64,000 nucleotides of DNA from Alphaproteobacteria bacterium (GTDB lineage Bacteria; Pseudomonadota; Alphaproteobacteria; UBA1280; UBA6503). Position 1 is the first letter of the stretch. Every line of letters starts with the position of its first letter. Shown in pieces: positions 11,153 through 64,000 of the stretch. Position numbers and translations under genes: made by a program. The notes under the pieces are model-generated. The model did not search any database, was not told the origin of the DNA, and worked only from the letters and a program-made list of their open reading frames with translations. The stretch lies in assembly GCA_021774615.1 (NCBI GenBank), contig JAJFIW010000003.1, positions 7,867-71,866 of the forward strand, read 5' to 3'.

Positions 11153-11153
11153 T

Positions 11154-11183: not shown

Positions 11184-11199
11184 AATATGCGTAAAAGAA

Positions 11200-11373: not shown

Positions 11374-11504
11374 GGTATTACCCTCTTTAAATCTCGGTTG
11401 TGTCGCATTTTTAAGGCAATATCCATCTAAAGTCAAAAGAAAATCGTAAATAATTGTTATTTTTATTGTATATTAGGCACATATAATAAATAGAAAGCTG
11501 CACC

Positions 11505-12413: not shown

Positions 12414-12434
12414 AACAACCAAGGAGCTTACCTT

Positions 12435-13559: not shown

Positions 13560-13598
13560 ATAAAATAAAATAATTAATAGAAATAATAAGGAAATAGC

Positions 13599-15715: not shown

Positions 15716-15747
15716 TTTAAGCTCTTATCTTGGAATGTTTAAATAAA

Positions 15748-16062
15748 TTAGTTGTTACAAACTTTGTAGTTAAGGTTTTTCTGGTCTGCAATCTCAAATT
15801 TCATTGGTGCGTAGCTGTCTTGAGGTTGCGTGGTACCTTTTTTACGGGCTTGTTCTCTATTCTTGCGCTGTAAATCTTTTTTCTCTCTAAGAGTAAGCCT
15901 GTTATTAGCTTTTCTTTCGGCAGCAGGGATTATATTAACGTTACCATTTGTTGTACGTGTTTGTGGGTCGCTACAACGTACTTTTAAGGCAGAAGCATCA
16001 GGGATAGAAACCATAGTAGCAATGGCTACGGTAACAATTGTAAGTATAATTTTGCTTCTCAT
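15748..16062 (-). CDS. small secreted Cys-pair protein, paralog B
   Basis: Signal peptide MRSKIILTIVTVAIATMVSIPDASA, then LKVRCSDPQT..., ending NYKVCNN. Same architecture as 15419-15715. ATG at 16062 preferred over the track start. Confidence 0.5.
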   Translation of the reverse strand: MRSKIILTIVTVAIATMVSIPDASALKVRCSDPQTRTTNGNVNIIPAAERKANNRLTLREKKDLQRKNREQARKKGTTQPQDSYAPMKFEIADQKNLNYKVCNN

Positions 16063-16140
16063 AATTTTGCCTCTAAATAAATATGTAAAATCCAATAACG
16101 CCTCATACATGGGGATGATTTATTATTTTTCAAGTGGTAG

Positions 16141-17289: not shown

Positions 17290-17305
17290 GCTAGACCTCT
17301 TTTCT

Positions 17306-20300: not shown

Positions 20301-20845
20301 ATAAATTCTTGCACGGTAGATGGGTATAAAACAGGTACCATTGCTGCTATCATGTCTTGTTCAGACTGGTGGCCTAGGGTTGATGATACGCAGTCGTGGT
20401 CGTCGCCCATAAGTGCTAGCACGCCACCATATTGAGAAGTGCCAGCAGCATTGGCATGTTTAAAAACATCCATGCTGCGGTCAACACCAGGGCCTTTGCC
20501 GTACCACATACCGAATACGCCGTCGTATTTTGCACCTGGAAAAAGGGTTGTTTGCTGTGTTCCCCAAACAGCAGTAGCGCCTAAATCTTCGTTAATACCA
20601 GGGGTGAATTTAATTTGGTGGTTTTCTAGGTATTTACTGGCATAGCTTAACTGCTTGTCGAGCCCCGCTAAAGGAGAGCCACGGTAGCCGCTAACAAAGC
20701 CTGCGGTATTAAGGCCATTTGCCAAGTCCATATCCCGTTGGAGCATTGGTAGGCGGACTAGTGCTTGCGAACCTGAAACAAAAATACGCCCTTTTATGAG
20801 GGTGTATTTATCTTCTAGAGATACTTTGTGTAGACTTTGAGCCAT
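17306..20845 (-). CDS. fused indolepyruvate/2-oxoacid:ferredoxin oxidoreductase family protein (alpha-beta-gamma fusion)
   Basis: 1179 aa. N-terminus DKYTLIKGRIFVSGSQALVRLPMLQ is characteristic of the fused IOR/OFOR family. Contains a TPP-binding region, two 4Fe-4S Cys clusters (CAGCPHN..., CEGCGDCSEKSNC) and a C-terminal gamma-like domain. Confidence 0.8.
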   Translation of the reverse strand: MAQSLHKVSLEDKYTLIKGRIFVSGSQALVRLPMLQRDMDLANGLNTAGFVSGYRGSPLAGLDKQLSYASKYLENHQIKFTPGINEDLGATAVWGTQQTTLFPGAKYDGVFGMWYGKGPGVDRSMDVFKHANAAGTSQYGGVLALMGDDHDCVSSTLGHQSEQDMIAAMVPVLYPSTVQEFIDFGLIGWGMSRYAGCWVSMKCATEVVESSASIETSPDRIKLQTPTDHSIPEGGLSIRMPDPPLAQEMRLQDKANAAIAYARANKVDQTIIDSKKARLGIITSGKSYKDVLQAFDDLGISHKKAEKLGIRVYKVGLVWPIEPQGALEFAEGLEEILVVEEKREMIEQQLKSLMFNLPANQKPIVVGKYDETGEQLLPFAGGHTPRMVAEVIAKRIEKMFNDTDIKKNAAYIETLKQQQISYEDKVVRLPYYCAGCPHNISTKVIEGSRAIAGIGCHYMVQWMNRSSNIITHMGGEGVNWVGHAPFTSEPHVFANLGDGTYYHSGSLAVRQAVASGVNITYKILYNDVIAMTGGQTVEGPLSVQRVSQQMAAEGVSKIYVMSDEPEKYTSKSEFAAGTIIKHRDSLEDVQKDLRDTKGTSILIYDQTCAAEKRRRRKRGKYPDPAKRAFINPLVCEGCGDCSEKSNCVAVEPLETEFGRKRQINQSSCNKDYSCTNGFCPSFVTVEGGTLKKGEKQDSSSQKFTQIPEPKIPNISGSYNMLITGIGGTGVITIGAILGMAAHIDGKGVTILDQTGLAQKNGAVMSHLRIAENPEDLHAVRIAIGNADLVLGCDMVVSGNSKALSRMSAKRTTAIINSHMTPTANFTLDPDTNFHETETMAKIAGAIGKDSSTFIEATHLATTLMGDAIATNMFMLGYAWQQGLIPVSHKSIIEALTLNGVAVESNISSFNWGRLAAHDPNQVKQIVHKANNIEEDSISETLEDLISKRITYLTGYQDASYASKYQELVEKVAKAEQKAIDGSTMLTEAVARYAFKLMSYKDEYEVARLYTSGEFEQRLKDTFTGDYKLKFHLAPPLLSKKNSKGELQKMEFNSWMLPAFRVLAKLKGLRGTPLDIFNYTAERKTERKLLTDYIKLISEICTALNNKNHTLAVALARIPEEIRGFGHVKERHIELALQKQHTLLEAFKNPDKIEKLGEVHLPGAHLPNSKTKQKIKIAIS

Positions 20846-24250: not shown

Positions 24251-26515
24251 TTATTTAGGCATATTAGCTATATCCTGTAGGCTTGTATTACTATCCGTTT
24301 GGCCATAATCAGGGTCATTATCCATTATATCTTCAGCATAAGATTTTAAGGAAGATGATATTGAGCGGCCTTTACGAATAGCCAAAAACCCCCCACTAAT
24401 AAGAACACTTACTATTATAACTAGTATAAATGTTTTAGCACCTTGCTCAAAAGTATCGGACGATGCAGTAATGGCAAATGCAGCCAGAGACGCTGGAATA
24501 ATAATTAAGAAGAACCACCACATCTCAGCAAATAATTTTTGTAAATAATCTTGGTTATTAGTGGACGCCTGCTGGCTTTTGTCTTGCATGTTGGTATATC
24601 TTTTCCATGCTTTGTTTTGGCGTTCTTTAATTCCATAAGTTTTGTCATATAACAGTTCATAGGCTCCTTCAAAAGCAGCTTGTATTTCTCTTGTACTGGC
24701 AAATGCCCCAGCTCTGGCACGTTGCTCTATTATATCTGAAATAAGCAGCCCTTGCGGCCGCCCTACACCCCACACTTGGTAGTGCGATTTTAATGATGGA
24801 GCCATAGGGGCAAATGTAGTTTGTGTAAAAGAACGTTTAATACCAACTTCCATTAAGTTTTCGTAATTAAATGGTGTTTGGTAATAATGGCTAAGAGACC
24901 ATTTCTCTTTATCTATTATCTTAGTTTCTTCTTGTTTTAGTTCTGCTAATGCTTTCTCATATTCTTCTAAAACAGGTTTTTCGTCTATAACTAACCAATT
25001 TGGTATTGACTCTGGCATAAAAGATGCCGCTTTAAAATTAAGCTTTGCTACCCATAAAGGCCAATATTCACCTATTTTTAGTTCTTTTTCGCGGAGTATC
25101 CGGTCTAGCGTCTCTGTTGGTCCATATTGTCTGCCATCAAGCGATGTGTTTGTTAGTATATCGCTAAGCTCTGGTATTGGGATATGCTTTATACACTCTT
25201 GTAGTAGATGTTTATTAATAGTCCACATATGTGCGGTATTTTTCTTTTCATCTTCTAAGGTGTTTTTACTAATAGTTTCATGAAAAGAGGCTAAGTTGTT
25301 TTGGATTATCCTTATAGTTTCTTGTACTTCTTTTAGTGGTTCAAATAGAATACGTGTGTCTTCTTTTTCATTAAAAAGAAGAGACAAAATCTTTTGTTCG
25401 AAAAATAAGCAGTATAATAACCCACCACCTAAAGCACATTCGGCAAACTCTTTTATGGCGATTATTTCTTCTTTTTGCCATTTATTATGGTTTGTCATAG
25501 ATAGAAGAATCATAGACTTTACATAGATAATATAATCATCATTATCTAATTCTTGTATCTCTGGTATTTTGTAAAGTGCATGTTCTCTTAATAAGCTAAT
25601 GGTTTTGTCTGGAGCAAAGGCACTGTCTGTTGCAATATAATGGTATTTAAATCGGCGCAGTATATTAGCATTAAATTTTTTGCTATCTGATGCTGCCTTT
25701 TTACCTTCTTGCCTTGCTTCTGGTAAAAATTTATTATTACCATGGGCTGTACGGTGGTACAAAATATTTGCTAGTACAAAAGATAACAACCTATTGTGCG
25801 GGTCTTCATTCCTAATATTTTTTAGAATTGTTAAAGAATCTGCTGCGCGACCTTCTTGATATACTTGGATAGCACGTTGTATTTTTTGTACAGTAATAGT
25901 TGTTGTTTGGTAATCAGAAGGGTTTGCTCGGGCTAGGTCTGTTTCATGGCTTAACATCCTAGATAATAACTGCCCATCAAGACCAATTTCTTCTTTGGTA
26001 GTATTATCAAACCTTGATAGTGCTGTTTTTGGGAAAAATTCTGATTTTAGATTAAGTCCAGCTAGGCATAAGCCTGTAGTGTGCTGTTTTTCGTTGATAG
26101 AACTAGGCAAAGGGGCAATAGCCCGTAGAATAAACTGAGTGAGAGGAGCACTTAAATCTGGAGGAGGAGGCGTTAAGTCATCCTTTTTAAGGCTTTCTAA
26201 CTCTTCATTTTCTTCAATTTCATCATCAGCAGGACTATGACTTTCTAATGTCTTTATGGTGTCTCTATGTAACTGAATTCTAGGGTCTTCAGTTGGTATA
26301 TAAGAAACTCTATCTACTTGGACTGCTGCAAGTAGCATTCTTCCAATAGCAATGCTTTCTTCTGGAAGCTCGGTGGGTATGTTCTCTATACCTGCGATTG
26401 GCTGTGCAGTACGGCGTTTAACGTAAGCAGAATGCTGCTTTTTTAGCATAACCTTTGTTTTATTTAGAGTGCTTTTAAGAGCTACCATTTTGCTACCTTT
26501 TTTGTAGCCTCGCAT
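24251..26515 (-). CDS. large hypothetical protein with C-terminal membrane anchor (two TM helices)
   Basis: 754 aa, AT-rich codon usage, a proline-rich segment (LTPPPPDLSAPL), no recognisable catalytic motif, and two hydrophobic helices near the C-terminus (WWFFLIIIPASLAAFAI...FILVIIVSVLISGGFLAI). Confidence 0.55.
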   Translation of the reverse strand: MRGYKKGSKMVALKSTLNKTKVMLKKQHSAYVKRRTAQPIAGIENIPTELPEESIAIGRMLLAAVQVDRVSYIPTEDPRIQLHRDTIKTLESHSPADDEIEENEELESLKKDDLTPPPPDLSAPLTQFILRAIAPLPSSINEKQHTTGLCLAGLNLKSEFFPKTALSRFDNTTKEEIGLDGQLLSRMLSHETDLARANPSDYQTTTITVQKIQRAIQVYQEGRAADSLTILKNIRNEDPHNRLLSFVLANILYHRTAHGNNKFLPEARQEGKKAASDSKKFNANILRRFKYHYIATDSAFAPDKTISLLREHALYKIPEIQELDNDDYIIYVKSMILLSMTNHNKWQKEEIIAIKEFAECALGGGLLYCLFFEQKILSLLFNEKEDTRILFEPLKEVQETIRIIQNNLASFHETISKNTLEDEKKNTAHMWTINKHLLQECIKHIPIPELSDILTNTSLDGRQYGPTETLDRILREKELKIGEYWPLWVAKLNFKAASFMPESIPNWLVIDEKPVLEEYEKALAELKQEETKIIDKEKWSLSHYYQTPFNYENLMEVGIKRSFTQTTFAPMAPSLKSHYQVWGVGRPQGLLISDIIEQRARAGAFASTREIQAAFEGAYELLYDKTYGIKERQNKAWKRYTNMQDKSQQASTNNQDYLQKLFAEMWWFFLIIIPASLAAFAITASSDTFEQGAKTFILVIIVSVLISGGFLAIRKGRSISSSLKSYAEDIMDNDPDYGQTDSNTSLQDIANMPK

Positions 26516-26521
26516 AAAATG

Positions 26522-27373
26522 TTACTTGTCATGAGCAGGCTCCTCAAGTGATGCAATATTGATTTTTTTACGGTGCAGCTCGTAAAGGATTAGGTCATTT
26601 AATGCATCAAATGGGATGCTAGCTCCTATCTGAATCCCATTAACAAGCATAATTGGTAGTTTCCCTAGTTTTATGGACTTATTTAGAGATGCATCAGCAT
26701 CAATCTCACGGTATACATCTCTTGCGTTTAGGCGCACCATTTGTTGTGAGTTCCTAATAGCAAGCCCTGCATTTTTTAAAGCCAGTAATAGAGTTTCATC
26801 ATCCTGAACTTTAACCTGACTAAGCTCTTCTCTGAATTTCCAAAATAGTCCATGACGATTGGCAATTTTACTATAAAAAGCAGCTAGGTTATCAGTTGCA
26901 AAAGGGTTGTCAGATGCATGTTTATGTATATGGCGAATATGGTTAGGGTATTTGTCCATTAATTCTTTAATAATAGGCGTTATATTTGAGCAGCTTGTGC
27001 AGCCTATATTACTAAATTCGATAATTGTTATAGGTGCTTTTAAGTTGCCAGCCATGGGGTTGTGTTGGTAAATAGGAACATGGATTCTTCTAATAAGACT
27101 ATCTTTTGCTGCAATGTCAGACAGCGACTTAGGTAAATTATTAAATACTTCGCCTTTATGGATCTCTTGTTTTTTTATTTCAGGGTTCTGATTAAATGAG
27201 GTAACCCTTGCTAGTACTCTTGCACGGTCTTCTTCTGTAACTGTTGGCTCTGTCTTTTTTTGTGCAGCAGCTTCTGCAAAAGGTACGTATACCATCCACG
27301 AAAATGCCACAATGGTTTGTAAAAAAATAACTTTATACATATAATTTATTTTTAACAGAACCATATCCCCCAT
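26522..27373 (-). CDS. thioredoxin-fold protein, DsbA-like (CxxC = CTSC)
   Basis: N-terminal signal/anchor, then ITIIEFSNIGCTSCSNITPIIKEL, typical of the DsbA-like thiol:disulfide oxidoreductase fold. Seven nt downstream of the 754-aa gene on the same strand. Confidence 0.5.
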   Translation of the reverse strand: MGDMVLLKINYMYKVIFLQTIVAFSWMVYVPFAEAAAQKKTEPTVTEEDRARVLARVTSFNQNPEIKKQEIHKGEVFNNLPKSLSDIAAKDSLIRRIHVPIYQHNPMAGNLKAPITIIEFSNIGCTSCSNITPIIKELMDKYPNHIRHIHKHASDNPFATDNLAAFYSKIANRHGLFWKFREELSQVKVQDDETLLLALKNAGLAIRNSQQMVRLNARDVYREIDADASLNKSIKLGKLPIMLVNGIQIGASIPFDALNDLILYELHRKKINIASLEEPAHDK

Positions 27374-34419: not shown

Positions 34420-36555
34420 TTAAAATTTGAAAGATGCCTTAACTTGCCCAGTATGGCTTAAAAATTCGTCTTTAATCTGGGCATCATAACCAAATTGCAG
34501 AGTTATCATTTTATTTGCCGACTCAAAAGTAAAAGACGTACCTAGGTTAAGCGATTCTTCAGCTATTTGTACCTGTTGGTCAGACACAAACGCGCCACCA
34601 CCAAAAGCACGAGTGCTTTGTACTTCATCGCTAGCAAAGTCGTACATTAGGTTGGCATGTATTTCGGGGCGGTATGTATTCATATTGTATTTGTATGACC
34701 CCTCTAACCTAGCACCTATTTTACCTACCAAGGAATTTTTACTAGAGATAAGGTCTTGCACAGTGTTTACATTATCGCGCAGGGTAACTTTATCTTTGGT
34801 AATATGGGTGTAGTTTAAACCAGCCTCTGGGATAATATAAGTAGTATTTGCTACGTTAAACTTTTTACCAAACTTAATGTCAGCTCCATATTGATTGGTC
34901 GAGTAATCCCCCGACATCCGCCCAAAACCAAGTACATTTTGTGCTGTATTAACATCGTTAATACCAAAATGAACTGACCCTGTTATAAATGAGTCATCTA
35001 TTGTTTTGTCGCCATATAAAGCTAAAATATAGGTATTAACTTTAGCGTCAGAGTTTGCAAAGCTTTCGCCATTAATATCGGCATAGTTATAGCTAAATGC
35101 TAAGCCTGCACGGGTCCCTGTAGTAACTTCGTTATCGTAACCAATTGTGCCGCCAATGCTGTTGGCCTCGTAGCCTGCAATTCCTTTGCGTGCTCCTTGG
35201 TCAAGGGTGCTTGCAGTGCCTTGGAACCACATTTTATTATTTGCAGTAATATCACCTGCAGAAACACCTAAACTACCACCTCGTAAACTAGCAAGGCGAT
35301 TAGCAATACTTGTAGTAGTCACATGGAAAACTTCTGTCGCAGCATTGTTAATAGCACCTGCAACAACGTTTGCATCCCCTAGTTTGCCTACAGCTTCTTG
35401 AATTTGGGAGGGCGTACCAGCAACAGCAGTGTTTATAGCAGTTTGAACCGTAGCAGGAAGAGTAGCACCACTAGTAAGTTGGATTATTTTACCTGCATCA
35501 GTAGTGCTAACGCCTAAAGTTGTAGCAATTTGAGTTGTTGGTTTAGCAGCTCCTGCTGTAATTTCAACATTGGTACCATTAACAGCAACTGTGAAATTAC
35601 GAAACAAGTTATCAGCGTTAATGTTAGCTACATTTTCATCGGCATTACCAACTAGGTTATCAACTAGCACAACTGTCCCTGAACCAAAAGCAACATCAGG
35701 AATAACTGCAACATTACCTGTCATGTTTAAGGTTGTGCCTGTAAATACAGTTGTTGCATTAATAAATCCATCGCCAAGGTTAAGAGTACCCGTTTGTAAA
35801 GCAACGCTTGATAGGTCAACAGTTCCATTAAATGAAGCCGATGCCGCAGGGTTAGAAATATTAATTGTACCTGAATTATTTAGTATGCTTCCTGCCGTAA
35901 TGCCGTAAGTTCCTGCAGTTAGGTTGCCATTATTATTTATAATAGTGTTTGAAGTGGTAGCTAATGAATTTACAATAGAGGTTGTTCCACCAAGATCAAT
36001 CTGAGCAACAGCTGTAGCTGAATTACCAACCAAAGTAATACCTCCAGTTGTAATATCTCCTGAGACTAATAACGATGCATCTTTATCTGCTATTGTATTA
36101 TTAGATATAATAGTAATAAATCCTTCTCCAAGGTTTAGATCACCAGTAACATCAACAATAATGTCACTATTAGCTGCACCAAACCCACCTATTGCGGCTA
36201 TAGTTAAATTTAAATCCTGTCCAGTAGCTGCATTAATATTACCAATAACTTGTAAGGTTTGTGGCATAGCTACAGCTGATTGTAGTATGCTTAGGGATGA
36301 TGGCCCTGTATTGAAAAGCGTATTAATAGCATCAGGATCAACAGCTGTTTCACCAACAGTTCTATTGTTATCTATAAATATGGTTTCACCAGCGCCTGTA
36401 ATATTTAAATCTTTATTCTCATCACCAGCAATAAGTGGGGAATTAACAGCGAGCATCGCATCATCTACAACATCAGCAAAAGCTATGCTTGGCAAAGTGC
36501 TTATACCAATAAGAGCTGTTGTTGCTAGCAGTAGTGGCATTTGCTTAATTTTCAT
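34420..36555 (-). CDS. autotransporter (type Va) outer-membrane protein with T/N/G-rich passenger
   Basis: Signal peptide MKIKQMPLLLATTALIGISTLPSIAFA, a repetitive T/G/N/A-rich passenger of about 400 aa, and a C-terminal beta-barrel translocator ending ...GQVKASFKF (terminal aromatic residue). Confidence 0.75.
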   Translation of the reverse strand: MKIKQMPLLLATTALIGISTLPSIAFADVVDDAMLAVNSPLIAGDENKDLNITGAGETIFIDNNRTVGETAVDPDAINTLFNTGPSSLSILQSAVAMPQTLQVIGNINAATGQDLNLTIAAIGGFGAANSDIIVDVTGDLNLGEGFITIISNNTIADKDASLLVSGDITTGGITLVGNSATAVAQIDLGGTTSIVNSLATTSNTIINNNGNLTAGTYGITAGSILNNSGTINISNPAASASFNGTVDLSSVALQTGTLNLGDGFINATTVFTGTTLNMTGNVAVIPDVAFGSGTVVLVDNLVGNADENVANINADNLFRNFTVAVNGTNVEITAGAAKPTTQIATTLGVSTTDAGKIIQLTSGATLPATVQTAINTAVAGTPSQIQEAVGKLGDANVVAGAINNAATEVFHVTTTSIANRLASLRGGSLGVSAGDITANNKMWFQGTASTLDQGARKGIAGYEANSIGGTIGYDNEVTTGTRAGLAFSYNYADINGESFANSDAKVNTYILALYGDKTIDDSFITGSVHFGINDVNTAQNVLGFGRMSGDYSTNQYGADIKFGKKFNVANTTYIIPEAGLNYTHITKDKVTLRDNVNTVQDLISSKNSLVGKIGARLEGSYKYNMNTYRPEIHANLMYDFASDEVQSTRAFGGGAFVSDQQVQIAEESLNLGTSFTFESANKMITLQFGYDAQIKDEFLSHTGQVKASFKF

Positions 36556-41636: not shown

Positions 41637-42368
41637 ATGAATTTTAAAATGTTTGTTTTCTTGTTAGGTCTGAGTGCTATGTTTGGTAGCATTTCTGCGT
41701 ATGCTCAAGAAGAACAAGATTTATTGCCACCACCATTGCCAAGTTCTTTGGAGGTTGCAAGTAAACCTGTTGTTGAATACCTCCCAGAACAAGATTTAGA
41801 AAAACTGTTTGAAGATGCACACCGTAATTTTGGACAGGATTTTGGCGAATTAAAAGGGGAGCTCCCTGTTAATAATATTCAAGAAGATATAAAAGTAGAA
41901 GATGCTAAACCTACTGTTATTCCAGAGCCAACAGCCATTGTTAAAAAAGATGAGGTAGATAGCGCTGCTCCTAAACCTGCTATAGTTAAGAAAGCTGAAC
42001 AACCTAAAGCTAGGCAGCTTGATAAAAAGCAGGATGTTAAAATGGTTAGAGGTAGGAATATAAAACAAGATTTTATCTCGCTTGGGGATGTGCGTGTTAA
42101 CGTATCGCTTGAGAATATTACTTTAGAAGAAGTTATATCGTCAGTTGTTAGCAAGGCTGAAAAACAAACAGGGCCATGGAAAGTTCGTTGGAGATTAAAA
42201 GATGAAAACCAAGTATTGAGGCATGAGCGGGTTAACATTAATGCTGAGAGCGACTTTGAAACATTTATGGCAAACCTGATGGCTAAAGTAAATAATACTA
42301 CTGGAACAAAATTATTTATTAAAGTATTTGAAACATCACGAATTATTATAATAGCTGATAATTTTTAG
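41637..42368 (+). CDS. secreted protein, possible TcpQ/BfpG-like secretin partner
   Basis: Signal peptide MNFKMFVFLLGLSAMFGSISAYA, an acidic P/K-rich linker, and a conserved C-terminal domain (~110 aa; ...GPWKVRWRLKDENQVL...). Lies 17 nt upstream of the liposecretin. The family assignment is inference only. Confidence 0.4.
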   Translation: MNFKMFVFLLGLSAMFGSISAYAQEEQDLLPPPLPSSLEVASKPVVEYLPEQDLEKLFEDAHRNFGQDFGELKGELPVNNIQEDIKVEDAKPTVIPEPTAIVKKDEVDSAAPKPAIVKKAEQPKARQLDKKQDVKMVRGRNIKQDFISLGDVRVNVSLENITLEEVISSVVSKAEKQTGPWKVRWRLKDENQVLRHERVNINAESDFETFMANLMAKVNNTTGTKLFIKVFETSRIIIIADNF

Positions 42369-42384: not shown

Positions 42385-44148
42385 ATGCGAGGGTTATTTA
42401 CACCAATTAAGAGTATTTTACTTTATACGGTTCTTATTGTATCGGCTGTATACTTGTCTGCTTGTACGGCTATTTACCGTGATACTGTTAAAGCCCCTAC
42501 AAAACAAGAAATTGTAGAATTAAAAACAATGCAACCGCGTAGTGTTCTTAAAAAAGGCACATTCCATATGCAAAGAGTTAGTGACCGCTCGAGCGTTTTG
42601 GTTGACCCTGCTATTAAGCTGAAACGGCCAGAACTACCACCGTTTGATGTAGTATATATTTCGCAACCTGTAGAAGATATCCTTATTGAGCTTGCAAACA
42701 CTGCTGGCGAATCTATTGTGATTCCATCAAGCGTACGAGAGCAAACAATTACTGTTGTTCACTCTGGCTCTAACTTTAAGGGTATGCTCGATATTGTATT
42801 GTCTAAGGTAGGCTATCATTATAACTATGTAGAAGGTGTATGGTATATTACCCGTTTCCCAGTTCGTAATTACCAGCTTGAGATATCGCAGTCAGACAGA
42901 GGTGGTTCTCTTAATACTGCTTTAGAACCTAAACAGATTATAAGCGATGCTGCTACAGTAGAAGCTAGTGGTGGTATTGAAGAATTATCAACTTCTTATA
43001 CTGATGAGTTGTGGGAACAAGTTTCTGATACTTTAGAGCAGCTTGTTTTGGTAGGTACGGGCTCGTCTGCATTAGCAGACTCTGGAAGTGATGAAACATT
43101 TGGCGGAGTTAGCGCTGCTTCTGGATCTGTAGTCGGTTCAAATACAGAGCAAAGCAGGCTTATCCCTGAAGCAGGTTTTTCGGGTGGAAGTGGTGATACA
43201 ACCCGTCCTGAAGATTTGCCAGCAGTACAAGGTAGTGACCATTTATCTTCTGGCGATGATGCACAGCCTTTCTTACAAATAACACCTAGTGCAGGTATTA
43301 TTACAGTTAGGACTTCTCCTGAAGCACACCGGATGATTGAAACATACCTTGAGCAAGTTCAACAATCACTATTACGTCAAATATTTGTTGAAGCAAGGAT
43401 TGTTGCAATTGTGACGGATAAAGAAACTAACCGTGGGAGTAACTTATCTGGTAGTTCTTTAGATTTAGGTATTCCGGGGCTTAAATCTTTAGGTGGTGCG
43501 CTTGGGTTTAGTGGCCAGCCTGCTGTACCAACTGGTGTTAACGAGCAATTGGGTGGGTTCTTAAACCTAACGTTTAATAATAATAATATTCAATCGGTAG
43601 TACAAATGCTTAACCAAGTTGGTGATGTTTATACTATTTCTAGCCCATCTCTTCTTGCTAGAAATAACCAAATATCACGAGTGGCGATTACCCAACAAAT
43701 TGGTTATGCAGAAACAACTGTTGAAACTAACACAAACTCTGACGGTAATGTTGTTATTGGTCAGCGTACAGATGAAGCGCAGTTCCGTAATGCGGGTACA
43801 GTTTTGTCAATTATCCCATTTATTGGTAAAAATAAAGTACAAATGCGGATGCGCCTCTCCATATCTAACCAGTCTGGGGCTGTTTCTATCTTTACTGCTG
43901 TGGGTGTTGGTGACCCTGTAAGAAATGATGTACCAGAGTTAAGCACAAACTTAATCGACCAAGACATGATCATGGACTACGGCCGTGTGCATGCAATTGG
44001 TGGTGTTATCCAATCTAGTACAAACCTAGATAGTTCGTATGTTCCTGGGTTTAACCATGTACCAGGCTTACGCGAGATATTCTCAACTGCAAATAATAAG
44101 AAAACAAATACCGAGTTTATGGTATTAATGCGGGTGTCTAGATCATAA
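42385..44148 (+). CDS. secretin (GspD/PilQ superfamily) with lipoprotein signal (liposecretin)
   Basis: Lipobox LSAC at the signal-peptide end, an N0/STN-like domain, a 120-aa G/S/D-rich disordered linker, and a C-terminal secretin domain ending ...VPGFNHVPGLREIFSTANNKKTNTEFMVLMRV. Confidence 0.75.
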   Translation: MRGLFTPIKSILLYTVLIVSAVYLSACTAIYRDTVKAPTKQEIVELKTMQPRSVLKKGTFHMQRVSDRSSVLVDPAIKLKRPELPPFDVVYISQPVEDILIELANTAGESIVIPSSVREQTITVVHSGSNFKGMLDIVLSKVGYHYNYVEGVWYITRFPVRNYQLEISQSDRGGSLNTALEPKQIISDAATVEASGGIEELSTSYTDELWEQVSDTLEQLVLVGTGSSALADSGSDETFGGVSAASGSVVGSNTEQSRLIPEAGFSGGSGDTTRPEDLPAVQGSDHLSSGDDAQPFLQITPSAGIITVRTSPEAHRMIETYLEQVQQSLLRQIFVEARIVAIVTDKETNRGSNLSGSSLDLGIPGLKSLGGALGFSGQPAVPTGVNEQLGGFLNLTFNNNNIQSVVQMLNQVGDVYTISSPSLLARNNQISRVAITQQIGYAETTVETNTNSDGNVVIGQRTDEAQFRNAGTVLSIIPFIGKNKVQMRMRLSISNQSGAVSIFTAVGVGDPVRNDVPELSTNLIDQDMIMDYGRVHAIGGVIQSSTNLDSSYVPGFNHVPGLREIFSTANNKKTNTEFMVLMRVSRS

Positions 44149-57091: not shown

Positions 57092-57676
57092 CTACTTTTG
57101 CCTTTGGGCATAAGTAAGTAGAATTTTATATGCGTCATTAATGCGCTGGATGCGCTCAACAGCATCTGGCGCATTTTGATGTAAATCTGGGTGATATTTT
57201 TTAGCTAATTGGCGATAAGCAGTTTTAACCTTATTAAGGTCTCGAGGTGTAGAAATACCTAAAGTTTGGCATGCTTTACGGATCTGCCCGGGCACCATAT
57301 CTTGTTTTGGCTCGGGCTTATGAGTATCTTGTTGGCGCATATGTTCACCAAAAACACGGTAGGGGTCTGTTATTTTCTCGTCTATAGTTGCGCTTTTGTA
57401 AGAGTGGCTCCCGACGCCCATTTTCCAAGTTGGTCTATTCCAGTAACCACCTTGTTGCATGGTGAATATCTCATCGCTAGATAGGCCTTCAAGCCCATTC
57501 CAATGTTTATTATATTCTTTTACGTGCTCTAGGCAGAAATAAATACGTTGCCCTAGTTTTTGGGCATCACGTGGCGCTGGAAATTCGCCTTCTTTTCCAC
57601 AATCTGGATAAGCACAAATGCGTTTGAAAGTCATGCAGCTACCTCTTTTTAAAAACAACGAAGTATAAGAGAGCAA
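57092..57676 (-). CDS. J-domain protein with N-terminal Cys/His zinc-ribbon-like segment
   Basis: C-terminal J domain with HPD (AYRQLAKKYHPDLHQ); N-terminal C-x2-C ... C-x2-H (CAYPDCGKEG...FCLEH). Confidence 0.65.
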   Translation of the reverse strand: MLSYTSLFLKRGSCMTFKRICAYPDCGKEGEFPAPRDAQKLGQRIYFCLEHVKEYNKHWNGLEGLSSDEIFTMQQGGYWNRPTWKMGVGSHSYKSATIDEKITDPYRVFGEHMRQQDTHKPEPKQDMVPGQIRKACQTLGISTPRDLNKVKTAYRQLAKKYHPDLHQNAPDAVERIQRINDAYKILLTYAQRQK

Positions 57677-57694: not shown

Positions 57695-58309
57695 TTATCC
57701 TAAAATAAAGAATATCATATCCATGAGTGGTTGTTGTAGAGTAACCATAACCCATAAGCCAATGCTTAGCCCAAAGCCAAAGGGAATAGCCTGCCCACGT
57801 GGTATTACTAGCGATAATACTAGGTTGCTCATAAAAGCAATTGCAAGTGCAAAGGGTAGTGCTGGTAAGCCCACCCATGCGCCTAGTACGGCAAGCATTT
57901 TTACATCGCCAAAGCCTAAGTCACCTTCACCTTTGTGCAAAGCTTTAAGGATAAGGTCTATCACAACTCCAATGCTAGCAGCTACCAATATACCAAGTAT
58001 ACTTTCGATGATTGTAACTTCTAGAATTAAAGGCGCATAAATCAGACCTAAAATTAAGAGAGGGATAGTATAGATATTTAGAAGTAAAAAATGGCATAAA
58101 TCAACAGCAGTCATCCGCCCTAGTAGTACTGCAATTGGTATAAGTAATATAGACTGTAGTGCTGTTAATCCACCATAAATAAACCCTGCCAATAAAAGGC
58201 TACAAAGCCCAACACTTAATAATGCCCAAGCTCGATTTATAAAGCGTACAGGTAGTATGCCGTCGTCAATTTCCTCAGGCAGCACATACCTTTTTTCTAG
58301 TTCCCACAT
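57695..58309 (-). CDS. A24-family prepilin peptidase, short form with no N-terminal Zn/methyltransferase domain
   Basis: Multi-pass membrane protein with the two catalytic Asp motifs (RMTAVDLCHF and GEGDLGFGDVKMLAVLGAWVG). About 200 aa, so comparable to the TadV/CpaA-type. Confidence 0.75.
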   Translation of the reverse strand: MWELEKRYVLPEEIDDGILPVRFINRAWALLSVGLCSLLLAGFIYGGLTALQSILLIPIAVLLGRMTAVDLCHFLLLNIYTIPLLILGLIYAPLILEVTIIESILGILVAASIGVVIDLILKALHKGEGDLGFGDVKMLAVLGAWVGLPALPFALAIAFMSNLVLSLVIPRGQAIPFGFGLSIGLWVMVTLQQPLMDMIFFILG

Positions 58310-58335
58310 GGCTTATGTTATTTGTCCTATTATGG

Positions 58336-59376
58336 TTATGGGCAGTTTGTGACATAGCTAATTTTAACTGTAAATGGTGCTTTTAGCACATTATTATAGT
58401 TTGATCTGTAGCATAATCTCCTTAGATCTGGGAATGTATTATATTTTGAGGGTGGTAGGTTTAATAAAGTAAGTAAATCACTATCGTTAACCTCGTCTAG
58501 CTCTGGCGCAACTGCTGCTCTTCCATGAGGGATATAATAATAATTATTTGGTGCAATAACCCCGTCATTAGCATCATGAATAGAATTAGGGAAATAATTT
58601 AGATTTTGCTCCTCCCCAGGCTGGTAAGCACCATCATTATTAAAGTCACAACGAGGGTGTAATAATTCTGGGTTTGCAGTTGTGGCACAGAATATTTTAT
58701 TTTCAATACGAAGAGTTCTCTCGTACTCTTGGAGACGTTTTTGTACGGTTGCAGCTCTTCTATGAGTTTCTAGTGCAGCTTTCTTAACATGTTCAATTGT
58801 AGAGAATTTAACACCAATATCATCACTCATAGGTTTCCAGTTTGTATAATCTGTAATACAGTTAGCTTCAGTATCTTTTCTTAGTATTACACTAGTAGTA
58901 CCGTCATCAGAGCTAATTCCCGAGTCATAGTTTTTATCAGGTCCAGAAGAGTATATAACTACATTATCAACACCAAATAATGTCCCTCCCACATTAATAG
59001 TAGTGTTGCACATACCGAACATCCAGTCATGTCCCCAAGGGTCTTTCTCTAAGGATGAATCCTTTAGATAGTCAACGTCATTTCCTGTAACAACTCTTCC
59101 ATTTACCCAGTCCCTAAGGTTAACTGTAGTCCTAGGTATTAATACGGTATAATTAACGAAATTAGTCCTATCAATGCCTGGGGTAGAAATAAACATTTCT
59201 TCAAGGGCATCAGCTATTTTTTGTACGCCAATATCTGATGACTCAACCCGATTTTTTTCTATTTTACTAACTACTTGTGTTCCGACAACACCAGCCAATA
59301 CACTTACAATTACAAGGGCAACACGAGTGTCCATCGAGAACATCGCACCTCTTTGTGAAGACAGTAATTTAAACAT
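58336..59376 (-). CDS. large prepilin-like protein (class III signal peptide), paralog 1
   Basis: Leader MFKLLSSQRG followed by AMFSMDTRVALVIVSVLAGVVGTQVV (a basic residue + Gly cleavage context, then a 22-aa hydrophobic helix). A Cys-rich C-terminal half shares blocks with the next ORF (DDIG.KFSTI, PRCDFNNDGAYQ.GEE, PNNYYYIP.GRAA). Confidence 0.5.
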   Translation of the reverse strand: MFKLLSSQRGAMFSMDTRVALVIVSVLAGVVGTQVVSKIEKNRVESSDIGVQKIADALEEMFISTPGIDRTNFVNYTVLIPRTTVNLRDWVNGRVVTGNDVDYLKDSSLEKDPWGHDWMFGMCNTTINVGGTLFGVDNVVIYSSGPDKNYDSGISSDDGTTSVILRKDTEANCITDYTNWKPMSDDIGVKFSTIEHVKKAALETHRRAATVQKRLQEYERTLRIENKIFCATTANPELLHPRCDFNNDGAYQPGEEQNLNYFPNSIHDANDGVIAPNNYYYIPHGRAAVAPELDEVNDSDLLTLLNLPPSKYNTFPDLRRLCYRSNYNNVLKAPFTVKISYVTNCP

Positions 59377-59394
59377 TATATTACTATTCCTTGT

Positions 59395-60432
59395 TTATGG
59401 TGTTGGGCAAACTGCCGCATAACTTAATTTAATTGTAAAAGGGGACTGCATATTGCCAGTACGGTTTGACTCGTAGCACAATAATTTACCCCATGGGTCA
59501 GTTGCATAGCTTGCATCTAGACCTAAAGAAATAACAAAAGCTTGCATGCCTGCAAGGTTAAATGCTACATCACCAACCTCGGTACCAGCTGCTGCTCTGC
59601 CATAAGGTATATAGTAATAATTGTTTGGAGGTACCGCTGTATCTACTGTATCAGTAGCCGAACGAGGGAAATAATTTGACCCTATTTCTTCACCTGTTTG
59701 GTAGGCTCCATCATTATTAAAATCGCAGCGTGGGTTTAAAGTCTCAGGGTTTAGTGTAGTAGAACAAAAATCTTGGTTTTCCATAACTTTTGTTGCTTCA
59801 TATGCTTGTAAGGATTCTTGTATAATAATAAGCTTATTCTTCATTTCAGTAATATAAGCTCGCTCAATATCTATAGTGCTAAATTTCATACCAATATCGT
59901 CATTAATTGTGTTCCAAGCTGCAAAATTTGCTACACAAGTAGCATTAGCAAGGATATCACCTGTTCCAGAACTAAGTGTTCGGTCTGGGCCACCAGAATA
60001 TATAACGGCATAATGTACGGTTACTTGAACTCCTTCAATAGTTTGTGTAGCTACACATTTATCAAACGCCCAAGTTTGCCCCCAAGGCTCTTCTACTAAG
60101 GCTGCAGATACTAACCCTGCGTCTATAACTCTGGTTTGGTAGCTACCTAAACCTGTATTAAAGTTAGTTGGTAGAGGGACCAGGGCTGTGTGGCCAGCAG
60201 GTAAACCATTAAGAGCAGTTACAGTAGGTTGAGATTTATAATAGGTCTCAAGCCCATCAACAAGTGCACTTACACTAATTTCGGCTGCTTCTACCCGATT
60301 ACGCTCAACCTTTTGGATAACCTGAGTCCCCACTACGCCAGCTAGCACGCTTGCAATTATTAATGCAATCCGAGCGTCCATCGAGAACATCGCACCTTTT
60401 TGTAGTTTTATTAGGTTTTCAATCATCTTCAT
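59395..60432 (-). CDS. large prepilin-like protein (class III signal peptide), paralog 2
   Basis: Leader MKMIENLIKLQKG then AMFSMDARIALIIASVLAGVVGTQVI. C-terminal conserved Cys-containing blocks are shared with 58336-59376. Confidence 0.5.
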   Translation of the reverse strand: MKMIENLIKLQKGAMFSMDARIALIIASVLAGVVGTQVIQKVERNRVEAAEISVSALVDGLETYYKSQPTVTALNGLPAGHTALVPLPTNFNTGLGSYQTRVIDAGLVSAALVEEPWGQTWAFDKCVATQTIEGVQVTVHYAVIYSGGPDRTLSSGTGDILANATCVANFAAWNTINDDIGMKFSTIDIERAYITEMKNKLIIIQESLQAYEATKVMENQDFCSTTLNPETLNPRCDFNNDGAYQTGEEIGSNYFPRSATDTVDTAVPPNNYYYIPYGRAAAGTEVGDVAFNLAGMQAFVISLGLDASYATDPWGKLLCYESNRTGNMQSPFTIKLSYAAVCPTP

Positions 60433-60447
60433 GCCTTTTTATAAGAG

Positions 60448-61656
60448 TTAATTACCTTTTCTAACGCAACGTGTATTGATACCTAGGCTGCCTTTACCAG
60501 ACTGATAGATAAGCCCGTCACCGAAAGATACTGTGTTTGCAGCACTGTCAGTAGCTTCAGTTGATGTCCAGTATAATTCCCAATCGGTAAATCCACCAAT
60601 AGTGGCTTTGTTTGTATAAAGAGTGCTTAGTTCATTTCTTGATGGTAAGTACCAGTCATCAAAACCATTTAAAACAAGGTTGTGGCATAGTGCTGCTACT
60701 GGGTATTTGGCTGCACCAAGCCCTATATAAGTATCAGTATTTGCTGCACCATCTAGTAGGCTAGTTGCACCAGTTATAACATTCTCAGTAGAAAATACAG
60801 GTGTGCCTGCTTCATCTTGTTCTGCAGATACTAAAGCACCTACACCAGCTGCAAGGCAAATGCCTCCTTGGGCATTGTTGCCTAGGCCTGCACATGAATC
60901 TGGCATTACTATAACGTTATCCATATTCATCGGTACAGTTAAAACTTGTGCCCATGGGGTTGTAGCTTGAAGCTGCGCTATGTTGTCTGAAGTAATAGCA
61001 TAGGTAAATGCTCCTCCCCAGAAATCAGTAGTACTTGATTGTGCTGCAATAGCGGGGTATTCTACAAGTGTTGGGAATCTACCATTCTTTCCCCAGAACG
61101 AATATAATATTTCAGAATATTTTTCCATTCTATCTATAGTTTCTGCAATTTGCTTAGTTCTAATTCCAGATGTATCAATGGTTATAACATCATCACGATT
61201 GTTTATTGTGTCAGCTGCCATTGCAGCTGCATCACCAGCAGTTTCTAGAGCAGTTATTTGTGTGCGAACAAGGTTGTCATCACTTGTTGAAATTATAATT
61301 TGCTGAGAATTGGTACCAACATCTGTTGTAATTGTACCTATAGCAATATTTTGACCAGACCTAGTGCCACCACCAATACTTTTTGCAACAAAGCTATTAA
61401 TAGCGTTGGTATCAACAGCTCCAAATGTACCTGTTGTTTCTGCCATTAGTGCGCCTTCAACGGCTCTTCGGTAAGTATCAGCTGTTTCTTTTGAACGCTG
61501 CTCTTGCTGCTCTTGGATACGCTTCATTTCTAGGTCTGCTTGTATTTTTATACCACCAGAAAGCACTGCCACACCAGCAAGCATACCAAATAGGAACGGA
61601 GAAACCGCCCCTCTTTGACGCACAATAGCGCATTTAATGTAATTTATTAGATCCAA
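60448..61656 (-). CDS. prepilin-like N-terminus fused to a C-terminal DUF1566 (Lcl C-terminal) domain
   Basis: Leader ...IVRQRG then AVSPFLFGMLAGVAVLSGG. C-terminus DWYLPSRNELSTLY...WELYWTSTEATDSAANTVSFGDG...INTRCVRKG matches the DUF1566 consensus (W.LP...EL..L ... YWSST ... VRCVR). Confidence 0.55.
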   Translation of the reverse strand: MDLINYIKCAIVRQRGAVSPFLFGMLAGVAVLSGGIKIQADLEMKRIQEQQEQRSKETADTYRRAVEGALMAETTGTFGAVDTNAINSFVAKSIGGGTRSGQNIAIGTITTDVGTNSQQIIISTSDDNLVRTQITALETAGDAAAMAADTINNRDDVITIDTSGIRTKQIAETIDRMEKYSEILYSFWGKNGRFPTLVEYPAIAAQSSTTDFWGGAFTYAITSDNIAQLQATTPWAQVLTVPMNMDNVIVMPDSCAGLGNNAQGGICLAAGVGALVSAEQDEAGTPVFSTENVITGATSLLDGAANTDTYIGLGAAKYPVAALCHNLVLNGFDDWYLPSRNELSTLYTNKATIGGFTDWELYWTSTEATDSAANTVSFGDGLIYQSGKGSLGINTRCVRKGN

Positions 61657-61682
61657 AATTCCCCCAAACTACTTCTTTTGCT

Positions 61683-62522
61683 TTATAAAGCCATCTTGAT
61701 TGGTAGCACATATTCCACACCATCAACTGACAACATAACTTTACGATGCTTTATAGCAGTTATTGTCACACTTATATTATGTGCATTAGCATTAGAATCT
61801 GCCTGACGTTTTGCTTTCTCTATCCTGTAGTTATTGATTGCTTCATCTCTCAATAATTCAAATTGTTTGTATGTTTTTTCTGAGATGTTCTCACTCGAGG
61901 GCATTTGTGCATTTATAAGTTCGATTATTTTAGGCTCATTATCGGTAATGTGGATTGGCATTAAGAATCTGTCACCAATAGAGAAACGTTGGTTGTTTAT
62001 AACTACATAAGGTGTTGGTGTAACCATCATTGACGATATAACAATTTTGCTTAAATCTTTCTTAAAATCCCTTTGAACTACCTCTGGAGAGGATTGTAGA
62101 GATTCTGTTGTAACAATTGTTCTTAGATAATTACGAAATTCTTCTAAATCCAATTTTTCTTGAATAAATTCCATTGGTAGATCTGGTACCGTAATATCTA
62201 CAGGTAATTGCGGTAATAAAGGTAAAGTTTCTTGTTTCTCTTCAATATTAAATGGATCTATTAAGTCGCGCCTAATAAGCATAGACATTGTTGGCGTGCC
62301 GATCTCTCTGGCGGTTACCTTACCTCTTGCCGCAGGAGTTATGGTGGTAGTATCAGCTTTATCTAGATCTTTTCTTGTAAACTCGAACTCAGCTTGTCCA
62401 GAAGTAAATGAAGACGGCCAGTCAATAGCATTAACCGTTGGTACAGTTATAATAATAAGTAGTAGTATAAAACTACCATTTACTATAGTTGTTTTATTAA
62501 GCTTTATCTGGGTTAGATACAT
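61683..62522 (-). CDS. bitopic periplasmic protein, possible GspC/PilP-like assembly component
   Basis: N-terminal TM/signal segment (SFILLLIIITVPTVNA) and a small beta-rich C-terminal domain (NISVTITAIKHRKVMLSVDGVEYVLPI). The assignment is inferred from position only. Confidence 0.35.
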   Translation of the reverse strand: MYLTQIKLNKTTIVNGSFILLLIIITVPTVNAIDWPSSFTSGQAEFEFTRKDLDKADTTTITPAARGKVTAREIGTPTMSMLIRRDLIDPFNIEEKQETLPLLPQLPVDITVPDLPMEFIQEKLDLEEFRNYLRTIVTTESLQSSPEVVQRDFKKDLSKIVISSMMVTPTPYVVINNQRFSIGDRFLMPIHITDNEPKIIELINAQMPSSENISEKTYKQFELLRDEAINNYRIEKAKRQADSNANAHNISVTITAIKHRKVMLSVDGVEYVLPIKMAL

Positions 62523-62997
62523 AAATTAGCCCTCTAATTAAGATAGGATATTTTCCTTCTTCTTTTGCTACTCCCGACAAACCACATTTAAAACATATAT
62601 GAGTTATAATAAAGCCTGGTGTATTTTCCATTTTCTGCATAAGTTTTATGGTTTCAAAGTAACTAGCATTTCCTCTTATATTAAATTCATGAATATAGAA
62701 AAATCTATTTGCAGGAGCATCTGGTTTTATGTTGGAAGAAAATCTAAATGATAAACTAGTACCACCAAGCTCCAGTGTTCTTTCTATATTTGCTTTTTGG
62801 TCATCACCAGTACGCATTACTAAATTATCTATTTTCGCCTTTCTTTTTTCAAGGTGCTTCATTTCGTCTATTTGGCTTTGCATATGTTTGAACATTTGCT
62901 GCGATTTGTATAAGGCGTCTTTGTCCTCAAAAAATTGGAATGAGCCAATTATTATTGATAAAATAAGCAATGATAATCCTAAAGGAAATTTTATCAT
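62497..62997 (-). CDS. bitopic protein, GspM/PilO-like (TM + coiled coil + periplasmic domain)
   Basis: N-terminal TM helix LGLSLLILSIIIGSF, a coiled-coil region, and a periplasmic domain of about 90 aa. Overlaps neighbouring genes on both sides (operon). Confidence 0.4.
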   Translation of the reverse strand: MIKFPLGLSLLILSIIIGSFQFFEDKDALYKSQQMFKHMQSQIDEMKHLEKRKAKIDNLVMRTGDDQKANIERTLELGGTSLSFRFSSNIKPDAPANRFFYIHEFNIRGNASYFETIKLMQKMENTPGFIITHICFKCGLSGVAKEEGKYPILIRGLIYVSNPDKA

Positions 62998-63977
62998 TTC
63001 GAACTACCTTTACTTGTTGCTGGCTGCTTTGTAGCACCTTGAATTGAGAGGAAATCCAAATACGACTTAGCTACTTTTTCTAATGGTATAAGCCCCTCAA
63101 TCATAAAATCTGTGGGGTTACCTGTAATTGGTGGTTTTCTAATTTTATTTATAGTTAGGCTTGAAGATAGAAACTTCTTGGCAATAGGCTCTTGCTCTTC
63201 ATATGTTGCATAATGTTTTGTACTTGATTTAATCTTCGTTATAAATGCATCAGGCGGTGTTTTCGGATTTGGGTTCTCAAGAATATAGCTAGTTACAACA
63301 AAATTGGTATCTGCTAAAGCAAGGCTTATATCTTTAAAAATTAGAGAGAACAAAGATTGGTATTTTGAATAGCTCTCAATAGTTTGGATATGGTTTACAA
63401 TTGTTCTAAAATCTGGGTTTTGATTGGTCTGAGTTGATAATTTCTTTATTGCATAAGATGATTTTATAATTTGCTGTTGTTGGTATTCAGACACTGTATA
63501 TGCTAATGCTGCTGCTAAAACTCCAGCTAGTAGCATGTAGTCGCCGTATTTCTCTTGTAGGGTAGGTCTATTTATCCACATGTTTGTATTAATAGGCATG
63601 CTTAATAAAGGGTGGAGCTCAATATCCTGTATATCTTTTGCTGGCGATGTGTCCCAATTTGTATAAATATTTTTTTTTGTTGTTCTTGGGTAAGTTTTTA
63701 AAATTAGCTCTAAATCTTGAGGCCAAGTTTCTGGCGATGTGGGCTGTATATAATTATCTTGGCTATCCCAGTGGAAGATAACATCAGCAACAATAATCGC
63801 ATACATAGTATTAGGCGCAGATCTTCCTGAACGACAAAAGTCAAACATAGAAATAGACTTCATTTCTTGAAGCATTTGCTGAGTAGTAATGTCGTCAAGG
63901 TCATCACCAATAATGGTAGATGCAGGGTCCATAGGTTCACCATGAAGGTCTCGAGGAGAGAAAAACCCGAGCATCAT
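62994..63977 (-). CDS. bitopic protein, GspL/PilN-like (cytoplasmic domain, central TM, periplasmic domain); start may lie at or beyond the window edge
   Basis: A cytoplasmic segment of about 140 aa, a TM helix YGDYMLLAGVLAAALAYTV, and a periplasmic domain of about 170 aa. The gene order resembles gspL-M-(C)-pseudopilins-O. Confidence 0.4.
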   Translation of the reverse strand: MMLGFFSPRDLHGEPMDPASTIIGDDLDDITTQQMLQEMKSISMFDFCRSGRSAPNTMYAIIVADVIFHWDSQDNYIQPTSPETWPQDLELILKTYPRTTKKNIYTNWDTSPAKDIQDIELHPLLSMPINTNMWINRPTLQEKYGDYMLLAGVLAAALAYTVSEYQQQQIIKSSYAIKKLSTQTNQNPDFRTIVNHIQTIESYSKYQSLFSLIFKDISLALADTNFVVTSYILENPNPKTPPDAFITKIKSSTKHYATYEEQEPIAKKFLSSSLTINKIRKPPITGNPTDFMIEGLIPLEKVAKSYLDFLSIQGATKQPATSKGSSK

Positions 63978-64000
63978 ATTACGCCGTGACTGCTCATCTG

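Follow-up and report, generated by a model that had tools for sequence, protein, structure and literature searches.

The distal part of a probable operon for a divergent type IV filament machine with large, non-canonical pilins in an alphaproteobacterial genome

The 64,000-nt stretch of contig JAJFIW010000003.1 (Alphaproteobacteria bacterium, assembly GCA_021774615.1) analysed here, called the window throughout, carries at its end seven co-directional minus-strand open reading frames (ORFs), A to G, which run from 57695 to the window end (64000). It is close to certain that these genes belong to a type IV filament (T4F) machine. We further consider it likely that they form the distal part of an operon for a divergent machine of the branch that comprises type II secretion systems (T2SS), the type IVa pilus (T4aP) and the mannose-sensitive haemagglutinin (MSH) pilus, and that this machine works as proposed below. 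The identities and folds of the parts, a gene order conserved among relatives and the occurrence of a secretin in the same genomes carry this reading.

The ORFs of the locus are separated by 15-26 nt or overlap slightly. Together with the secretin gene and its partner gene elsewhere in the window, the features are as follows.

57695-58309, minus strand: A, short A24 prepilin peptidase (204 aa)
58336-59376, minus strand: B, large two-domain pilin paralog (346 aa)
59395-60432, minus strand: C, large two-domain pilin paralog (345 aa)
60448-61656, minus strand: D, modular pilin with C-terminal Lcl_C/DUF1566 (402 aa)
61683-62522, minus strand: E, periplasmic assembly protein with GspB-type C-terminal domain (279 aa)
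62497-62997, minus strand: F, bitopic protein, GspM/PilO-like by size, topology and position only (166 aa)
62994-64000, minus strand: G, GspL-like assembly protein, cut by the window end (full length 377 aa)
42385-44148, plus strand: divergent lipoprotein secretin (587 aa, Pfam Secretin)
41637-42368, plus strand: exported secretin partner, possibly TcpQ-like (243 aa)

All seven minus-strand genes that an earlier sequence-only reading of this DNA had listed are present. One correction concerns G, which is incomplete in the window, as its frame is open to base 63998 and about 43 residues lie beyond the window end. Because the full-length 377-aa protein (P0036) is encoded on the same 85,356-nt contig, G is cut off by the window and not by biology. 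Promoter and terminator scans of the window gave background levels and were uninformative. Shortly after the peptidase gene, the same strand encodes a DnaJ-domain protein with an N-terminal Cys/His zinc-ribbon-like motif (57092-57676). A DnaJ-domain gene follows the operon in 17 loci, including loci with a wholly different context further downstream; it may be co-transcribed with the filament operon or merely be a sticky syntenic neighbour.

Relatives were found by an alignment-based scan of one genome per species, while a single-sequence scan of the same collection found nothing. The species-level scan gave 29 loci, all from metagenome-assembled genomes of uncultured 'Alphaproteobacteria/Proteobacteria', some with obviously wrong species labels; homologs of pilin C were likewise found in metagenome-derived sequences only. 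As determined by tblastn and ORF clustering, about 25 loci of different species-level genomes have one gene order in common: ATPase, platform, G, F, E, D, large pilin, A24 peptidase. Since this order is kept in so many species-level loci, the arrangement is far beyond chance. Directly upstream of G, an ATPase of about 565-590 aa (Pfam T2SSE) and a platform protein of about 365 aa (T2SSF) are encoded in all loci that reach that far (22 of 22). The earlier expectation that the locus continues past the window was thus borne out wherever the upstream DNA of relatives exists. Upstream of the ATPase gene, 9 loci, including the closest relatives L002, L003 and L004, encode a small pilin of about 190 aa with the same leader. 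A membrane-anchored c-type cytochrome (cytochrome c-550-like, CxxCH; 2403-2936 in L002) is encoded directly upstream of the small pilin in the same 9 loci, which is probably mere synteny. From these relatives we strongly infer that an ATPase, a platform and a small pilin are also encoded upstream of G in the window genome.

The scores given for the ATPase and platform refer to the syntenic relative L002. Its ATPase matched GspE (9e-50) and PilF/PilB (1e-49) equally well, and PilT much less well. A type IVb affiliation was rejected, because the ATPase reached about 1e-50 against GspE/PilB and only 1e-16 against the type IVb protein BfpD. In NCBIfam, the ATPase scored 250.7 bits against PilB (cut-off 675.65), 235.1 bits against GspE (cut-off 630.25), 152 bits against ComGA and 20.9 bits against the TadA-family model; a CxxC...CxxC motif was read in it by eye. 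The platform protein was best matched by GspF (96.6 bits, cut-off 424) and, at a lower score, by ComGB. None of the loci examined has a PilT-like gene less than about 10 kb from the operon. About 9 kb downstream of the operon, L006 (19347-20267) and L008 (19647-20618) encode an ATPase of about 310 aa, VirB11/TrbB-like by eye, which was clustered by BLAST with the filament ATPase, yet is unlike PilT in appearance. The filament ATPase of the relatives has a weak MshEN-type N-terminal domain. As to cyclic-di-GMP turnover, the window encodes an EAL-domain protein and an EamA-GGDEF fusion (4052-6082 and 6690-8366, both plus strand), and an EAL protein also occurs within the syntenic region of the relative L033.

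A had been described as a short A24 prepilin peptidase, and the description holds. Pfam Peptidase_A24 matched residues 60-166 of 204 (E 2.7e-11, 44.3 bits, cut-off 26.5), and Asp70 and Asp135, the latter in GFGDVK, are invariant among 17 peptidase sequences and aligned with the catalytic Asp residues of E. coli GspO. The N-terminal methyltransferase/zinc domain A24_N_bact, which is found in bifunctional peptidases of the PilD type, gave no Pfam match in A. As the peptidase has no methyltransferase domain, we propose that the new N-terminal Ala of the pilins would be left unmethylated.

The prepilin-type N-termini claimed for B, C and D are exactly as had been described (QRG, QKG and RQRG). With the slash marking the proposed cleavage, the leaders read ...SSQRG/AMFSMDTRVAL in B, ...LQKG/AMFSMDARIAL in C and ...RQRG/AVSPFLFGM, with no acidic residue, in D, and each leads directly into the single N-terminal hydrophobic segment of the protein (about 20-25 residues). 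The large-pilin family begins with Q-(R/K)-G-A-M-F-(S/G)-M-D-A-R-(I/V)-A-L, in which Phe, Asp and Arg never vary and Gly hardly does. Cut after this Gly, the mature large pilin would start with Ala (+1) and lack Glu5; its Asp and Arg, both invariant, would stand at +6 and +8. The alignment, A-M-F-(S/G)-M-D, therefore agrees with the earlier statement of Ala at +1 and no Glu at +5, and the canonical N_methyl motif (F/M-x-x-x-E after the Gly; PF07963) matched none of the three pilins B, C and D in Pfam at E <= 1. Cleavage is placed after Gly because the next residue is variable in family D (A, N, M, G or Y), while the preceding Gly is nearly invariant. A cut behind Gly-Ala instead, which would bring Asp to position +5, was rejected, as the variable residue of family D is incompatible with a -1 position.

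With 44% identity and six Cys in equivalent places, B and C are as expected of the paralogs with conserved Cys that the two had been taken for. The second DPWG motif is degenerate in B, and among the loci examined the two genes stand side by side in the window genome only. Against NCBIfam TIGR01710 (GspG; cut-off 88.85), B scored 23.6 bits (E 4.3e-5) and C 19.1 bits. The check by structure prediction of a 345-aa protein gave a pilin fold. The AlphaFold2 model of C (mean predicted local distance difference test score, pLDDT, of 83) opens with an N-terminal helix of 49 residues, which is followed by a beta-sheet domain; another long helix (187-223) then leads to a second, small domain. Its best structural neighbours are type IV pilins and pseudopilins, and the sole meaningful Foldseek match is a type IVb pilin. 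By hhalign, 105 columns of the N-terminal half of the large pilins were aligned with E. coli GspG (probability 90.7%, E 1.3e-6). The helix of the first half recurs at the beginning of the second (E 3e-7), and both halves have a DPWG motif, which is why the second domain was read as a duplication. The B/C type would thus be a GspG-like pilin with an apparently duplicated, helix-anchored second globular domain. No relative was found when the pilin families were compared by hhalign with GspH, GspI, GspJ and GspK, and a search of PDB sequences with the large-pilin profile gave noise only.

The DUF1566 domain claimed for the third pilin is present, since Lcl_C (formerly DUF1566) matched residues 322-399 of D above the Pfam cut-off (36.3 bits against 34.9). 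The pilin-like module of D comprises about residues 1-245, as judged from the family alignment. The 27 orthologs of D are about 245 aa long and keep the N-terminus Q.G.FSPFMFGL and the C-terminus D.WG..F.Y...TTPW, and the extra 150 or so residues with Lcl_C are found in 1 of 28 D orthologs, namely that of the window. Over the N-terminal 60 columns, family D matched the small-pilin family (hhalign 80.5%, E 1.3e-5). By its sequence, D is a modular pilin, composed of a pilin-like module and Lcl_C, in the sense of PMC8179133, where a pilin module at the N-terminus is joined to a module not specific to pilus biology and the published design is that of tip-displayed adhesins; DUF1566 is unmentioned in the main text of that paper.

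E, F and G of the window gave no significant match in Pfam or NCBIfam. Pfam scans of every G and F ortholog gave nothing consistent, and the G, F and E profiles found only noise among PDB sequences. By hhalign, nothing was found between the G, F and E families and single E. coli GspL, GspM, GspC and GspB, or between F and the periplasmic part of G. In its fold, G shows the GspL architecture, with an actin-like domain in the cytoplasm, a helix across the membrane and a ferredoxin-like domain in the periplasm, and the latter matches PilO and the periplasmic domains of GspL. The proposal of a GspL/PilN-like protein is therefore supported by fold and architecture, while a sequence-level match was absent in Pfam, in PDB sequences and to E. 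coli GspL. F has an N-terminal membrane helix (hydrophobic segment at residues 1-24), a predicted coiled coil and a small C-terminal domain, and C135 and C138 are invariant in its 26 orthologs (165-171 aa). The earlier label of F as GspM/PilO-like stood with respect to size, topology and position; in sequence similarity it was confirmed by no tool. E has a signal-peptide-like N-terminus and one hydrophobic segment (residues 8-37). The sequence-only reading had taken E as GspC/PilP-like, which needs refining: hhalign of E against GspC gave nothing, and no GspC HR/PDZ architecture was detectable. Instead, 15 of 24 E orthologs matched the GspB-type C-terminal domain T2SSB (Pfam PF16537; best E 7.6e-6), with the window copy reaching only E 0.071. 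E is a candidate for the link to the secretin.

The secretin of the window had escaped the sequence-only reading and is an addition to the proposed machine. A secretin-less system was suggested by a negative tblastn search with E. coli GspD, but this was a false negative, and the idea was dropped when Pfam found the divergent secretin at 42385-44148 (Pfam Secretin, E 8.1e-23), 13.5 kb from the operon. Its best NCBIfam match is MshL (116.8 bits, cut-off 250.2), followed by GspD (73.6, cut-off 351.35) and PilQ (55.9, cut-off 284.35). A lipobox, LSAC, is present at Cys27 and is found in at least 107 of 120 homologs. In relatives, homologs with 45-70% identity share their contigs with the operon; the distance is about 19 kb in the L002 contig. 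The partner gene stands directly upstream of the secretin gene in the window, L033 and L035. Its product carries a signal peptide and, at the C-terminus, a conserved domain of some 100 aa; the window copy had no Pfam match, and the L035 ortholog gave a sub-threshold match to TcpQ (PF10671, E 0.005, profile positions 7-79 of 80). Judging from these sequences, the secretin is the probable outer-membrane channel of the system encoded by the operon.

The wider family was explored by searching 1.84 billion representative proteins with the large-pilin profile, which gave 455 matches at E <= 1e-3, of which 89 reach E <= 1e-10 and 29 reach E <= 1e-30 (clusters at 50% identity). Weaker full-length matches of 300-430 aa have the same two-domain layout, and they carry a canonical G/F-T-L-x-E leader in which Pfam recognised N_methyl. 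One of these matches belongs to the cousin locus L036, where the gene order is partner-like gene, secretin, small pilin, T2SSE, T2SSF, 369 aa, 161 aa, 208 aa, 268 aa, two-domain pilin and 132-aa A24_N_bact protein. The window secretin matched that of L036 at E 1e-16, and the C-terminal domain of the partner matched three L036 genes, including one just upstream of the L036 secretin. Because a secretin and a partner-like gene adjoin the operon in this cousin, the secretin pair of the window is taken to belong to the system. The family is likewise tied to true type IV pilins, because cousins with the same gene order have canonical G/FTLxE pilins. Such sequences support the view that the window clade derives from, or is sister to, systems with ordinary type IV pilin processing.

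Two observations on L036 should be added. The 132-aa gene after the two-domain pilin (11095-11493, also L037 2858-3256) has the A24_N_bact domain only, and no Peptidase_A24 was called beside it in L036, which makes it a mirror image of the protease-only peptidase of the window. Downstream of the operon there, at 11601-19797, genes for two paralogs of about 480 aa with the secretin-partner domain and for several small membrane proteins are accompanied by those for an SLT lytic transglycosylase and a UvrD-type helicase; this region may be part of a mobile or conjugative element.

We propose that the machine would work as follows. Three kinds of prepilin, of about 190 aa, of about 245 aa (D type) and of about 340 aa (B/C type), would enter the inner membrane via the N-terminal helix, the 190-aa pilin probably being the major subunit. 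The short A24 peptidase would cut them after the conserved Gly and leave the new N-terminal Ala unmethylated. A hexameric ATPase of the GspE/PilB type and a platform of the GspF/PilC type, held by G and its partner F, would polymerise the pilins. E, via its GspB-type domain, would bridge to the self-piloting lipoprotein secretin, aided by the small partner protein, and the fibre would exit the cell through this secretin (42385-44148). The large B/C and D pilins would be minor or tip subunits, with D displaying the Lcl_C adhesin-type module in the window genome.

As to the product, we lean towards a surface fibre for attachment. This is favoured because an adhesin-type module on a pilin makes sense only if it is exposed, because the secretin is closest to pilus secretins, and because a tip complex plus a shaft would suit three classes of pilin with large, decorated subunits. 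The main rival is a true T2SS, in which a short periplasmic pseudopilus would push folded proteins through the secretin. We regard it as unlikely, though it deserves serious consideration in view of its likeness to the locus: the ATPase is of the GspE type, the platform protein has GspF as its best match, G has the fused GspL architecture where T4aP has separate PilM and PilN, the N-terminal half of the large pilins matches GspG and has DPWG/GPY-type motifs, E has a GspB-type domain, a secretin is present, and the peptidase gene is the last of the operon, like gspO in E. coli. That every locus lacks a PilT-like gene within 10 kb also suits it, the sole second ATPase noted being VirB11/TrbB-like by eye. 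On the other hand, the Gsp equivalogs are widely missed (GspG, GspE, GspF and GspD, with the bit scores given above), hhalign recognised neither GspC nor relatives of GspH, GspI, GspJ and GspK, and the secretin, a lipoprotein whose gene stands away from the operon, is matched best by MshL, a pilus secretin. The pilins have 190-400 aa, compared with about 145 aa in E. coli GspG, and are without N-methyl motif and Glu5. An adhesin-type module on one of them is better suited to an exposed fibre, and no candidate substrates were identified.

Several points weigh against the filament as we have reconstructed it. The fused GspL, the GspG-like motifs, the GspB-type domain and the lack of a nearby PilT would fit a secretion system as well. 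The window genome's own ATPase, platform and small pilin lie beyond the window and are known from relatives alone, and F has no similarity to GspM/PilO detectable by Pfam, PDB-sequence profile search or hhalign. The pairing of secretin and operon relies on occurrence in the same genomes and on one cousin locus; the two lie about 800 kb apart in a more distant genome, and the genomes concerned may have other filament systems. Since the adhesin module is found in 1 of 28 D orthologs, it gives little information on the general function of the family. A surface fibre nevertheless remains our preferred product. A 711-aa protein with a C-terminal Autotransporter beta-domain (E 1.4e-37), encoded at 34420-36555 on the minus strand, is a second candidate surface or adhesion factor in the window.

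Two further explanations were weighed. A pilus for DNA uptake (competence), derived from T4aP or of the Com type, would suit a compact system with no retraction ATPase nearby, and the ATPase and platform do match ComGA (152 bits) and ComGB; the presence of uvrB and uvrC in the neighbourhood is weak evidence in the same direction. We hold it to be very unlikely, as the ComGA and ComGB scores are below those of PilB/GspE and GspF, no comEA, comEC or dprA-type genes were found among the window ORFs scanned or in the locus flanks, and the pilins give no hint of DNA binding. That the proteins of 345-402 aa are ordinary exported proteins with a chance Gly-Ala, or that the operon is a decaying relic, is scarcely credible. 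The unmatched N_methyl model and the absent Glu5 would agree with ordinary export by signal peptidase I, the scenario by which the sequence-only reading would have fallen. It is contradicted by the pilin fold, predicted with good confidence and with pilins as structural neighbours, by the leader and helix, which are the most conserved part in three different gene families, and by the gene context, the pilin genes always standing between assembly genes and the prepilin peptidase gene; distant homologs, moreover, carry the canonical N_methyl motif. Against a relic, all genes are intact across about 25 species-level genomes and catalytic residues are conserved.

The earlier statement that no canonical system fits the locus is upheld, as all tested components are far below the NCBIfam equivalog cut-offs for T2SS, T4aP and MSH, and Tad parts are absent. 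With MSH and T4aP, the locus shares the best NCBIfam matches of the ATPase (PilB) and the secretin (MshL), both below cut-off. MshL is described as a lipoprotein. The locus differs from these pili in having the counterparts of PilM and PilN, separate in T4aP, fused in one protein (G), and in its non-canonical leader, its peptidase without methyltransferase domain and the lack of PilT within about 10 kb. The likeness to Tad/Flp and archaeal type IV pili concerns processing only: the A24 peptidase is short and has no methyltransferase domain, a comparison based on TadV/CpaA and FlaK/PibD, the residue after Gly in the pilins is small, and no N-methylation would be expected. The ATPase and platform, by contrast, belong to the GspE/PilB and GspF/PilC types and not to the TadA/TadBC type, with only 20.9 bits for the TadA-family model, and window-type pilins have 190-400 aa and globular domains, whereas Flp pilins are much shorter. 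For B, C and D, the modular or dual-domain pilins PilB/PilC of S. sanguinis and PilJ of C. difficile serve as comparison; in contrast to these, the second domain of B/C is apparently an internal GspG-like duplication that is conserved as a family.

The generic definition of a T4F comprises ATPase, platform and pilin, with peptidase and secretin optional (PMC6668835). Pilins, an A24 peptidase and a secretin are present in the window, and ATPase and platform were seen in 22 related loci. Taken with the ATPase and platform of the relatives, the component set would be the same as in the generic systems of Denise, Abby and Rocha 2019 (PMC6668835), of which 884 unassigned ones were reported; the members described here are all from metagenome assemblies. 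What appears distinctive within the T2SS/T4aP branch is a presumably unmethylated A-M-F-x-M-D-x-R pilin start together with a peptidase that has no methyltransferase domain. The family of tandem GspG-like pilins, the modular pilin with DUF1566 and the detached lipoprotein secretin would be distinctive as well. It is possible, though we would stop short of calling it probable, that the locus represents a separate undescribed T4F class on a par with MSH or Com, with all of the following features jointly: confinement to an uncultured, probably small-genome lineage of Alphaproteobacteria, unmethylated pilins with contacts via an Asp+6/Arg+8 pair instead of N-methyl-Phe1/Glu5, a family-specific tandem-GspG pilin and a detached self-piloting lipoprotein secretin. 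There is at most a slender chance that this alphaproteobacterial branch could help to assign the bacterial origin, still unplaced, of the T2SS-derived apparatus in mitochondria (PMC8134430).

Elsewhere in the window, a bacterial RNase P RNA of class A (608-957, minus strand, 314 bits) is the only Rfam match. A 1179-aa protein of the 2-oxoacid:ferredoxin oxidoreductase type (TPP_enzyme_C, POR and DUF6537; 17306-20845, minus strand) hints at low-oxygen or ferredoxin-linked metabolism in the organism. For a 754-aa ORF (24251-26515, minus strand), upstream of a thioredoxin-like protein (26522-27373), Pfam gave nothing at E <= 0.01.

Few surface machines of prokaryotes are as widespread as type IV filaments, and current ideas on the processing and packing of their subunits rest on the G/F-x-x-x-E motif and N-methylation. 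The system described here is not a new principle, and unassigned filament systems are common (884 counted, PMC6668835). A conserved system without this motif and with a peptidase that has no methyltransferase domain, set against canonical cousins with the same gene order, would be a natural comparison for the role of these features. The tandem GspG-like pilins and the DUF1566-bearing pilin would provide further cases for the idea of the modular pilin. For the organisms themselves, a little-known lineage of Alphaproteobacteria, the system may serve as the chief means of attachment or secretion.

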